Source of the DNA: an uncultured delta proteobacterium
GTDB lineage: Bacteria > Desulfobacterota > Syntrophia > Syntrophales > UBA2185
NCBI GenBank assembly: GCA_963695875.1
Contig: CAVOID010000005.1
Span: forward strand, 128,001-192,000
DNA length: 64,000 nt
Direction of reading: 5' to 3'
Every line of letters begins with the position of its first letter. Position 1 is the first letter of the stretch. Positions 18,001-21,000 of this stretch are shown one piece after another. The position numbers were made by a program.

Positions 18001-21000
18001 GGAGAGCGTAAAGAAACTGTCACCCCATGTCTATTGCGGGGGGAAATGGGTGAAGGGTCTGCTCAACAACAAAATAACGCGTTCCATGGTCATGGCCAAC
18101 GCGGCGATTTACGAGCTCGCTGAAGACCCGAAATACAAGGAAATCATGGTCGCTACATCCCACCTTACGGGAGAGCCAATCAACCGCAACCTTAACGTTG
18201 CACGCAACATCCACGACCTGGACATGCGGCAGGAGATGGCCCTCTTGACGAGCCAGACAGTGGGCACCTGCAACTACCGCTGCGTCGGTTGCGATGCCCT
18301 CAACAGCCTTGCCTCCACGACGTGGGAGATGGACCGGGATCTGGGAACGAAGTATAATGAAAGATTCAATAAGTGGCTTACATATGCGCAGGCCAACGAC
18401 CTGGCCGTCTCCGGCGCCATAACCGATGCAAAAGGAGACAGGAAAAAGAGGCCTTCCCAGCAGGACGAACCTGATACATACATTCACCTCGTCGAAAAAC
18501 GGCAAGACGGGATCGTGGTCCGCGGGATCAAGGTGAGCCAGAGCGGCGCCATAGGGTCGCATGAAACTCTTGTTCTTCCAGGCGGCGCCTTGAAAGAAGG
18601 CGAAGAGGCCTTCGCCCTGTGCTTCGCTGTTCAGAACGGAGCACCGGGGATTACATACATCTGCCAGTACAATGCATACTCGGCAGAGCGGGAATTTTGT
18701 GAAGAGGAAGCCGAGATTGGGAATCCCGTCTTCGGACAAAGGGAAACCTCGACAATGGTTTTTGACAATGTCTTCATTCCCTGGGAGCGGGTTTTCCTCT
18801 GCGGCGAGACCAAGTACTGCGGGAAAATGGTCACCCGGTTCGCCAAGGCCCACCGCATGAACTGCGGCGGGGCCTGCAAGGTGGGATTTGCCGACCTGAT
18901 TATCGGAGGCACCGTGCTTGCCGCCGAATACACCGGTGTGGACAAGGTCCCTCACATCCAGGAGAAGATCATCGACATGGTCCGCTTCAGCGAGACATCC
19001 CACGCCTGCGCTATCGCCGCAGCCATGCGGGGACGGGAAGAACCCAAGGGATCGGGCGTCTTCCTGCCGGATGATCTCTTCGGAAACGCAGCCAAGCTGA
19101 ACATCGCCCACGGATTCTGGGAAATCATCAAGAATGCCGGAGATATCGGCGGCGGCCTGGTTGTGACCATGCCGAGGCTGAAGGATCTTGAAGACCCGGA
19201 GGTCGGTCCCATGCTGAAAAAGGCTTTCACGGCTGCAGCCCCGGCGGAGAAGCGTCTCAAGGTCGCAAAGTTCCTGCAGCACTGGGCAGCCGGTCTGCAT
19301 GGCACGGGTACCTGGCACGGCGCCGGCGCCCCCCAGACCCAGCGGTTCATGATCTCTGTACTTACGGACTTTGACGCCAAGAAAAAGATGGCCAAGAAGC
19401 TCATGGGCATGAAGGAAGAATAATTAAGGAGATCAAATGAAGAAAAAAGAGGCGAGGCGTTTTAGCTTGCCTCTTTTTATTTTGTCGGACTGAACTGTGA
19501 GATGTTTGAGTCAGCACACAACAACACGCTTTATCCCCTTTTCAAAATTATGACGTCAGTTGAGTTTATGAAGGACGTGTACAGATAATCTTTCATCTGA
19601 ACAGAGAATTTAAAACCCAGAATCATAAAGGAGGAATATCATGAGCGAACCCACCATAATTGAGAAAGCATTTCATACCATCATGAAACGTATGGTAGAA
19701 ACCGGTCAGGCGCCCTTTTACACTGAGCTTGCCGCTGAACTCGGCCTTTCCGTTGAGGGAGGGCGGAAGGTGCTGCACGACCTTTTCTCCTCGGGAATCC
19801 CCGGATGGCTGTACCCCCGAACTGACCACATCGTCTCCTTTGCTCCGTTCAACAGCCTTCCGACACAATACAGGATCACCATCGACGGTCAGCAGAAATG
19901 GTTCGGCCAGTGAGCATTTGAATCGCTGGCGGTCTGCTGGCTATTCCCTGGCAAGACAGTGACAGTGGATTTCCCCTGTCTGGATTGCGGCGCTCCTCTC
20001 CGGGTGGCCATCCGGGACGGTATAGTTCTGAATAGTGAAGCCTCAGGGTACAAAGCCTATGTATCCGTGCCATTCTGGAAATGGTTTGAAGACCCGGGCT
20101 ATGCTTGAAGCACCATGACTCTCTTCCGGTCGGAAGAGCACGTCCGCAACTGGAAGTCCTTTGTCGAAGGCACCGACGAGGGCATCCTGTCAATGCCCGA
20201 TTTGCTCAAGCTGTTCTCCGGGCCTTTCTTCAGGCGGCGGATGGATGAAGACTATGTTTCCCACATGCGCGAATACGCCCGCGGGATGGTTGAAGCCATG
20301 AAAGAAATCGGCAAAACCGGCCCATTCTGGAAAAAGCCGAAAAATTGATTCGGCCTTGTGTCGTGACAGGAATTGATTTCTGAAACCCCGCTCACTCATA
20401 AAGGAGCGGGGTTTTATGAAGAGTCTCGGGGCAGTTCAATTTTTTATCATCATTTAATAGAACTGTTTTTTATATTCTCCCGAGGAGCTGGCTAGGATAG
20501 AACAGTTGTGAAAAATCCTCTAATCTGATGTATGTGGTAATCAATGAATACGTCAGGACTCCCGCTCATACACCTATCTTCTTCTCTTTCAAACGTTTAA
20601 TGAACGCCCTCTTTTCTTTACTTTTTGCTTCCTTATACCACCATTGGCCGTCTTCATACCAGATCATGGCGGACTCGCCTCCAAGAAGCTTCGATTTCAC
20701 ATCAATGCCATGATATTCCATTTTATCCTGGAGAAGATCCTTATAAAGTCTATGCTCCCATTTAGAAGCATCAAATAACTCCACATCGAACTTGTGCCAA
20801 CGGCTCTCAATAATAAAACCGGCGAAAATGCTCATAATGCATAGAGCAAAAGTAATTACTGTATATTCAAATTTCTTCATATCTACCTCCTTCTCGCTGC
20901 GACGGGAATGGTTTCCCACTCGTCGAGACCCAATCCCTTGCAGATAAGCCTCGATACGCTCCTGTATCGATCTGGCGGAAAAACAATTATTTGGGAAGAT

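Follow-up and report, generated by a model that had tools for sequence, protein, structure and literature searches.

The MerB-family gene described here raises the question of whether a reading frame interrupted by two UGA codons is one gene or several, and what the product of a single such gene would do. It lies on contig CAVOID010000005.1 (assembly GCA_963695875.1) of an uncultured delta proteobacterium (Desulfobacterota; Syntrophia; Syntrophales; UBA2185), and positions below refer to the analysed stretch of 64,000 nucleotides (the window), in which position 1 is contig position 128,001; all features are on the + strand. The coding sequence, supported by the reading frame, the Pfam MerB match and dN/dS, spans 19641..20348 and comprises 235 codons and a stop. 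A Shine-Dalgarno sequence, GGAGG, was read from the sequence at 19630..19634, 6 nt before the ATG at 19641. The in-frame UGAs, located by alignment and conservation, are codon 91 (19911..19913) and codon 156 (20106..20108), and the true stop, also TGA, is at 20346..20348, the place where homologues end as well. A first-pass annotation had proposed one 235-codon gene read through both UGAs; its frame, start and TGA positions were confirmed, and the contig coordinates recovered by search, C5:147641-148345 with 2 TGA, agree with those of the window.

If the TGAs were real stops or specified another residue, the locus would be a set of three short genes or a pseudogene, or else belong to a genome in which TGA encodes Trp or Gly. 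Gene callers yield exactly such pieces: among 150 representatives, residue 90 is the last in 37 and Met159 the first in 12, which reproduces the fragment footprint reported earlier, and W/W readings are found among other database entries. Of the 120 database relatives listed, 54 read W/W and 60 carry Cys at site 1 and break off near residue 150-160; a further 2 are Cys/Cys, and 4 fall into none of these groups. The three classes of the first-pass annotation and its 2 Cys/Cys relatives were found again, but its counts of 52 W/W and 64 Cys-then-truncated entries were not. The family is large, occurs in anaerobic sediment bacteria and is cut into fragments by gene callers. The W/W entries, however, sit on contigs only about 1-2 kb long in the three clusters that were looked up, and the conservation described next is contrary to what real stops predict.

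A search across the order matched the gene in 63 of 339 genomes, giving 78 match rows, counted by hand, of which 59 were near-full-length (at least 220 of 235 residues). Exactly 2 TGA were present in 57 of these 59, in line with the 37 of 40 previously counted in 201 Syntrophales genomes. In a species-wide collection of genomes both TGAs were likewise present in 80/80 best loci, and in a phylum sample of 401 genomes they stood in fixed columns in 40 of the 46 match rows. Since the TGAs share the same two alignment columns among sequences down to 41% identity, they are not there by chance. Among the 60 family loci that the order-wide search supplied, site 1 was TGA in 59 and Cys in one, and site 2 was TGA in 60/60; distant relatives had Cys at both sites (n = 2 Cys/Cys loci). 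Cys thus alternates with TGA in the same columns, as is found for in-frame UGA codons of bacterial selenoprotein genes, and the existence of Sec/Sec, Cys/Sec and Cys/Cys forms, as claimed before, is supported by these alignments. The ratio dN/dS, pooled over 56 homologues, was 0.11 for codons 1-90, 0.20 for codons 92-155 and 0.23 for codons 157-235, so that all three segments are under purifying selection and the frame is kept across both TGAs. In the reads of 3 metagenome runs only TGA letters were seen at both Sec codons, again without variants. In addition, this gene itself terminates at a TGA, and so do 25 of 80 homologous loci, whose final stop is at the same place (TAA 37, TGA 25, TAG 17; 1 off the contig end).

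A conserved hairpin was found directly 3′ of each UGA, in agreement with the two SECIS hairpins proposed earlier; both are supported by the minimum free energy (MFE) fold, comparative pairing and synonymous variation. Hairpin 1 (19920..19946) has a stem of 19925-19930 with 19936-19941, the loop GGUCU at 19931-19935 and a lower stem of 19920-19923 with 19943-19946. Across 51 distinct sequences 92.5% of its cells were paired, compared with 22-64% for slid partners, and a compensatory change from G-C to C-G was seen in 3 sequences. Hairpin 2 (20121..20138) has a 7-bp stem, CUCUUCC/GGAAGAG, with the loop GGUC at 20128-20131; 98.8% of cells were paired in 46 distinct sequences, and two pairs changed from C-G to U-A (in 16 and 2 sequences). 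Synonymous variation was 0.00-0.28 at codons 94-99 and 0.00-0.07 at codons 161-165, against a gene mean of 0.49, and all 12 of the lowest 10-codon windows start at codons 90-94 or 156-162; the collapse is confined to the two hairpin sites. Folding downstream of the true stop (20346-20348) gave no hairpin comparable to these two. Neither hairpin had a better folding energy than shuffled sequence (z 0.12 and -0.43), and the case for SECIS elements therefore rests on the comparative data. An Rfam scan of 19600-20450 at E <= 10 returned four chance matches and no SECIS family. In the same genome, no loop motif is shared by the hairpins that follow the UGAs of selD and a CoADR-like gene; these hence add no support.

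The genome also carries the complete machinery for selenocysteine: a tRNA-Sec with anticodon TCA (76.2 bits) together with SelA, SelB and SelD, as had been listed before. Comparative evidence shows both UGAs as predicted selenocysteine codons, each recoded by its own downstream hairpin, and the reading of the TGAs as stops or as another residue is close to refuted. The product is predicted to be a single cytoplasmic selenoprotein of 235 residues that adopts the MerB fold, and we have hardly any doubt that it is a two-Sec MerB-family selenoprotein.

Membership of the broad MerB family was evident from Pfam MerB (PF03243), which scored 60.0 bits against a cut-off of 27 when C was placed at the Sec sites (56.4 bits in the first-pass annotation) and 43.4 bits when the genome was searched in six frames. 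The earlier alignment to MerB2 had been weak (27 bits), and with a single sequence we likewise obtained 24.5 bits for PDB 5c17_A; a 28-sequence profile raised this to 49.8 bits (E 3.6e-12), which reduces the concern. In both alignments the two Sec residues fall on Cys of 5c17_A, as originally claimed for the mercury-ligand cysteines, and Sec91 aligns with Cys in 5c17_A, 3f2g_A and 1s6l_A. The missing structure, another concern of the first reading, was supplied by an AlphaFold model (pLDDT 92.1, pTM 0.87), for which all 11 Foldseek matches in the PDB at E <= 0.001 were MerB or MerB2. By alignment and fold, Sec91, Glu94 and Sec156 are placed at the positions of MerB Cys96, Asp99 and Cys159, respectively. 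Glu94 (19920..19922), aligned with Ser in MerB2, was invariant at the acid position in 62/62 loci of the order search, two distant Cys/Cys relatives included, and in 80/80 of the genome collection; altogether Glu replaced the catalytic Asp in 140/140 Sec-form loci examined and in those two relatives, and Asp occupied the position in 5 of 54 W/W database entries. The residues around Sec in the order-search loci follow the motifs Q-U-[AG]-[FL]-E and [AST]-U-[SAT]. Furthermore, a CLDC motif (Cys113 and Cys116; 19977..19988) is invariant in the 28-sequence alignment and in 80/80 loci; Cys113 aligns with MerB Cys117, and Cys116 is extra relative to MerB.

We compared the protein with the known members of this fold. 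SaoL is a MerB-like organometallic lyase selenoprotein (NF040728; Haft and Gwadz, bioRxiv 10.1101/2022.07.06.499078), and the two have in common the Pfam MerB family, their occurrence as selenoproteins of anaerobes, Sec at the MerB Cys159 position and truncation at UGA by gene callers. SaoL, as described in the accessible part of that report, carries a single Sec, which forms part of a CU dipeptide, alongside Cys99 and Asp102. The two-Sec family instead has Sec at both ligand sites, Ala or Ser rather than Cys before the Sec, and Glu as acid, and so lacks the combination of CU dipeptide, Cys at ligand 1 and Asp. The NF040728 model gave 30.8 bits against a cut-off of 140 (relatives 22-50 bits), the canonical MerB model NF009710 gave 26.5 bits against 193, and NF033555 (cut-off 200 bits) did not match the protein at E <= 1. 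Because both the SaoL and the MerB cut-off are missed by far, the two-Sec protein is, as judged by these sequence models, neither canonical MerB nor one-Sec SaoL.

With MerB of plasmid R831b (PDB 3f0o, 3f0p, 1s6l) the protein shares the fold (Foldseek E about 2e-9, TM 0.58-0.68), chemically analogous residues at the three active-site positions, and the cysteine equivalent to Cys117 (Cys113). It differs in having Sec for both Cys and Glu for Asp99, in an identity of only 17-22% in structural alignments, in a longer C-terminal helical tail (235 residues versus chains of 212-220) and in the lack of a mer operon or MerA. The best structural and sequence match was MerB2 (PDB 5c17; TM-scores 0.67 and 0.75, rmsd 3.6), which carries Cys/Ser/Cys where the two-Sec family has Sec/Glu/Sec. 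The signature used for MerB by Christakis et al. 2021 (PMC8261052, accessible text) includes Cys96 and Cys159, at both of which this family has Sec, the chemical analogue of Cys. The same text indicates that linkage to merA is not obligatory, 906 of 1795 merB genomes being without MerA. For MerB-like proteins, the accessible text of the 2026 selenoprotein catalogue (PMC13188914) lists only SaoL, with one Sec, and the two-Sec families that it describes have closely spaced motifs (UxxU, CxU). For selenium biology the present gene is a rare kind of bacterial gene, with two well-separated Sec codons and an apparent SECIS element for each, and in its predicted MerB-type product both ligands of one putative metal site would be selenium.

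From this active site, carbon-metal lyase activity appears likely. Each UGA would be read as Sec through its own hairpin, using the tRNA-Sec, SelA, SelB and SelD of the genome. By analogy with MerB chemistry, one selenolate would bind the metal of the organometal substrate, the other would complete its coordination, and Glu94 would protonate the leaving carbon, releasing the hydrocarbon and leaving the metal ion with the two selenolates. In mercury-methylating anaerobes the enzyme would work without MerA, and thiols or the conserved CxxC would then need to take over the metal; given the strength of the Hg-Se bond, two selenolates may give up Hg(II) only slowly. We lean slightly towards a carbon-metal bond lyase that acts without MerA and probably on organomercurials such as methylmercury. 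The organomercurial substrate is the weakest step of this proposal and, taken by itself, a little short of an even call; the use of Glu rather than Asp as catalytic acid speaks against the proposal as a whole.

The protein might instead not be a lyase, serving to bind or sequester a soft metal (Hg, Cu, Cd) or as a redox protein cycling between two selenols and a diselenide. Two Sec residues that face each other might join in a diselenide or hold a metal very tightly, the extra CxxC is invariant, and a Sec-containing oxidoreductase is encoded about 2 kb upstream, with a homologue near 12 of 120 loci. This neighbour is, however, missing from the other 108 loci, the entire MerB core is retained at high model confidence, and the acid at the proton-donor position is invariant (62/62 and 80/80). 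A pure binding or redox role offers less reason for keeping such an acid, and we regard these readings as improbable.

Returning to the lyase, its genomic surroundings were inspected for partners. The neighbours in the window encode an HpaB-family protein, a Pyr_redox protein, TauE and DUF134. The protein encoded about 2 kb upstream of the MerB-type gene is a pyridine-nucleotide disulfide oxidoreductase that itself contains Sec. As had been noted before, the gene has no conserved neighbourhood: the best cluster of neighbours occurred in 16 of 120 loci, and no conserved partner gene was found. Neither the nine-gene sao neighbourhood (looked for among the Pfam neighbours in the window and the top neighbour clusters over 120 loci) nor a recurring transporter set (in those top clusters) was seen. 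No mer operon linkage was found, and the genome (82.6% complete) gave no MerA above cut-off (best 345 versus 454 bits). Downstream of the gene, a terminator-like hairpin, CCCCGCUC/GAGCGGGG followed by UUUUAU, was read from the sequence at 20386..20417 and is also visible in a chance Rfam alignment; the terminator scanner did not call it because its 10-nt loop exceeds the limit of 8. The scanner did report a terminator-like site 3′ of the upstream HpaB-family gene (19454..19483). The two sites may frame a single-gene unit, for which they are weak evidence because terminator-like sites such as that at 19454..19483 arise at chance frequency.

A lyase of the same mechanism could also act on another substrate, such as an organotin, organolead or organoarsenic compound or a metabolic organometallic intermediate, as proposed for SaoL. 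Neither the two ligands nor the acid are those of canonical MerB, and mer operon and MerA were not found. The MerB sequence in PDB 5u79, 5u7a, 5u7b and 5u7c is identical to that of 1s6l, and we take these entries to be organotin and organolead complexes of MerB. In the accessible part of their report, Haft and Gwadz (bioRxiv 10.1101/2022.07.06.499078) consider non-mercury substrates plausible for SaoL in view of the Sec at its metal site. On the other hand, no transporter or partner gene in 120 loci indicates another metal, no sao-type neighbourhood was found, and hgcA is enriched among carriers in two samples (see below). We consider another substrate fairly unlikely.

A more specific form of the organomercurial proposal is a selenium-dependent methylmercury demethylase of mercury-methylating peat and sediment anaerobes, providing a MerA-independent anaerobic route; this we put forward tentatively, as rather doubtful. 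Demethylation counts as much as methylation for net methylmercury in wetlands and sediments, and a 2021 critical review (PMC10114901) describes, in its accessible text, other anaerobic pathways as still uncharacterised. The family may be relevant here: it is common (63/339 genomes of the order and 41/401 of the phylum sample), its carriers include hgcAB-bearing lineages, and fragmenting gene calls combined with MerB screens that require Cys make standard searches miss it. If the demethylase reading were true, the failure of merB surveys to detect the family would be explained by their screening for Cys96, Asp99 and Cys159, together with the calling of the gene in pieces.

Both hgcA and hgcB are present in the genome of the two-Sec gene and are not adjacent to it; in carrier genomes hgcA is on another contig or, where a contig is common to both, more than 100 kb away. 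In the phylum sample, 19 of the 41 carriers had no detectable hgcA, in favour of another substrate. Nevertheless, hgcA was found in 52 of 63 carriers and 145 of 276 non-carriers of the order (Mantel-Haenszel odds ratio 6.1, stratified by family), and in 22 of 41 carriers and 102 of 360 non-carriers of the evenly drawn phylum sample, counts tallied by hand from tables. This enrichment is a hint only: related genomes do not provide independent observations, and genome size or habitat may act as confounders. The use of Sec was considered as a further confounder; as SelA was found in 371 of 401 genomes of the phylum sample, Sec use does not explain the enrichment.

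The MerB-like gene (window 19641-20348, + strand) starts with an ATG six bases 3′ of GGAGG and ends with the TGA at 20346, giving 235 codons when TGA 19911 and TGA 20106 are read through; the standard code splits this frame into ORFs of 90, 49 and 77 residues. A terminator-like site (19454-19483) is located 3′ of the upstream gene and a hairpin with a U-run (20386-20417) 3′ of the stop, an arrangement that suggests a single-gene unit. No other MerB-family gene is present in the genome (2.86 Mb, 82.6% completeness). The upstream neighbour encodes an HpaB-family protein (17972-19423, +; HpaB_N 272 bits, HpaB 179 bits), and a gene of this kind adjoins the MerB-like gene again at 10 of the 120 loci; the illustrated case comes from a close relative.

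The first-pass annotation had read this frame as one gene through two UGAs, and the homologues bear this out. In the order search, 63 of 339 genomes gave 78 match rows; at least 220 of the 235 residues were covered in 59 rows, and 57 of these carried exactly two in-frame TGAs (hand count), the exceptions being one frameshifted and one one-TGA copy. When 62 loci from the order were aligned, leaving out short partial matches, TGA filled column 91 in 59 loci, the other 3 having Cys, and column 156 in 60, with Cys in the remaining 2; the two Cys/Cys loci belong to relatives at 27% identity. A one-genome-per-species scan found 558 stretches encoding a relative, and TGA occupied both columns in all of the best 80. 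In an evenly drawn phylum sample the gene was present in 41 of 401 genomes, with exactly two TGAs in 40 of 46 match rows. Pooled dN/dS over 56 homologues, with dS near saturation, was 0.11 for codons 1-90, 0.20 for codons 92-155 and 0.23 for codons 157-235, indicating that all three pieces are translated in this frame. In homologues from the species scan the stop has the same position and may be TAA, TAG or TGA, and thus TGA is a normal stop here too and not a sense codon. No other letter was observed at either TGA in three metagenome runs from different studies. Several order genomes (among G179, G289, G181, G184, G187 and G185) have two or three family copies, including pairs just 41-46% identical to the window's protein, with two TGAs in every copy.

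The two proposed SECIS hairpins were likewise confirmed. The hairpin 3′ of each TGA is also the minimum-energy fold: GCUGGC-GGUCU-GCUGGC plus a lower stem after TGA 19911, and CUCUUCC-GGUC-GGAAGAG after TGA 20106. Paired cells amounted to 92.5% in the first (51 distinct sequences) and 98.8% in the second (46), against 22-64% for slid partners. In the first hairpin 3 sequences show a compensatory double change of G-C to C-G; in the second, two pairs have gone from C-G to U-A, one in 16 sequences and the other in 2. Some of these changes alter the amino acid. Synonymous variation, scored independently of pairing as the share of sequence pairs that agree in amino acid but differ in codon, averaged 0.49 over the gene but was 0.00-0.28 at codons 94-99 and 0.00-0.07 at codons 161-165, and each of the 12 lowest 10-codon windows has its first codon within 90-94 or 156-162. 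The sole Cys/Sec locus has gained a mismatch in the first hairpin. Folding energy of the hairpins taken alone was not significant, and no Rfam model matched either. Summed metagenome contig depth rose 10- to 100-fold at 19891-19952 and 20108-20138 in three runs, exactly over both hairpins; such nucleotides are therefore common to many different organisms in those samples, which fits nucleotide-level conservation.

The protein scored 60 bits with Pfam MerB (cut-off 27), and its AlphaFold2 model (28-sequence alignment) reached pLDDT 92.1 and pTM 0.87. All 11 PDB structure matches at E ≤ 0.001 were MerB or MerB2, the next match having E 0.04, and the family profile matched MerB2 5c17_A with 49.8 bits (E 3.6e-12). 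As proposed earlier, both Sec residues align with MerB cysteines (Sec91/Cys96, Sec156/Cys159), as does Cys113 with Cys117. Glu94 aligns with MerB Asp99, which is Ser in MerB2, and Glu94, Cys113 and Cys116 were unchanged in every Sec-form sequence extracted. MerB has the first CLDC cysteine only, whereas both are present here; the motif (19977-19988) is constant in all Sec-form sequences, and some Cys/Cys relatives (P0005, P0011) lack it. Identity as canonical MerB (26.5 bits, cut-off 193) or as SaoL, a MerB-like one-Sec selenoprotein (30.8 bits, cut-off 140), was rejected, the latter also for 19 database relatives. SaoL is described as having Cys99, Asp102 and a single Sec in a CU motif (10.1101/2022.07.06.499078), in contrast to two Sec and Glu94 here. 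For MerB-like proteins, the portion of the 2026 catalogue covered has just the one-Sec SaoL (PMC13188914). The literature covered on MerB, alkylmercury lyase or organomercurial lyase with selenocysteine or selenoprotein gave SaoL only, though an earlier listing may exist outside it; neither deep-Sep nor the GOS paper nor the main text of BSepDB mentions MerB. The earlier observation and interpretation are supported, and the gene product represents a new variant among the MerB-like selenoproteins, of two-Sec and Glu type.

Fragmentation of the family by gene callers, also claimed earlier, is evident in the databases. A search of 1.84 billion cluster representatives gave 665 matches at E ≤ 0.001; among the best 150, 37 stop exactly at residue 90, 2 stop at residue 155, 19, with Cys at site 1, stop near residue 155, and 12 begin at Met159. 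Only 18 of the 150 cover both sites, none with Sec/Sec read-through. Among 120 matches listed from a 90%-identity database, 54 were W/W and 60 had Cys at site 1 with an end at about 150-160; W/W entries in three clusters looked up came from contigs of about 1-2 kb. Relatives there are named just 'hypothetical protein' or 'Alkylmercury lyase'. In a quick tree of 67 rows, all Sec-bearing forms and five Cys/Cys forms make one clade (SH-aLRT 99), and well-supported branches force at least seven changes of the Sec/Sec label, within the limits set by truncated and W/W rows. Sec is more constant at site 2 than at site 1, as in SaoL. Record titles from the species scan name Syntrophales, Desulfobacterales, Desulfomonilaceae, Syntrophobacteraceae and Desulfarculales, besides single Dehalococcoidia and Poribacteria bins, all sources being metagenome-assembled genomes.

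By analogy with MerB, the two chalcogenolates would bind the metal and the acid residue would protonate the leaving carbon. The neighbourhood offered no informative partner, the best neighbour cluster occurring in 16 of 120 distinct loci. The same genome has the mercury methylation genes hgcA (C3:25397-26569; 1398-2573 of L154, a stretch of contig C3), with the cap-helix motif and membrane domain, and hgcB (L154 2539-2928), ending in CC then TGA; no N-terminal CU extension of hgcA is in frame here, and no MerA was above cut-off in the genome. By hand-made tallies of related, non-independent genomes, hgcA was found in 52 of 63 carriers of the MerB-like gene versus 145 of 276 non-carriers in the order (family-stratified Mantel-Haenszel odds ratio 6.1, p 0.0003), and in 22 of 41 versus 102 of 360 in the phylum sample (odds ratio 2.9), leaving out 8 weak matches resembling paralogues. 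Those 41 carriers span 27 genera, 15 of which include at least one carrier with hgcA. Since SelA is present in 371 of the 401 genomes, Sec use is ruled out as a confounder; habitat or genome size may underlie the enrichment, which is only a hint of a mercury link.

The selenocysteine machinery reported before was all found: SelA, SelB, SelD and a tRNA-Sec (76.2 bits, anticodon TCA). Four phylum-sample carriers (G483, G643, G687, G691), one of them 99% complete with a full two-TGA copy, gave no SelA match at E ≤ 1e-40, G483 as a recorded non-match and the other three by absence from the matches listed, and assembly gaps or binning errors may account for this. The selD gene (C5:126708-127637, −), just before the window's first base and separated from the MerB-like gene by about 20 kb, contains a single TGA in frame (motif GAGUACK). 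Another gene, for a pyridine-nucleotide disulfide oxidoreductase (Pyr_redox_2, Pyr_redox_dim; 16227-17561, +; start MSQKLV), is read through TGA 16356-16358 (motif SYAAUPMPYY), with a hairpin directly after the TGA; its standard-code ORF (16362-17561) lacks the N-terminus, and the product is probably an enzyme of the CoA-disulfide reductase or NADH-oxidase type in its Sec form.
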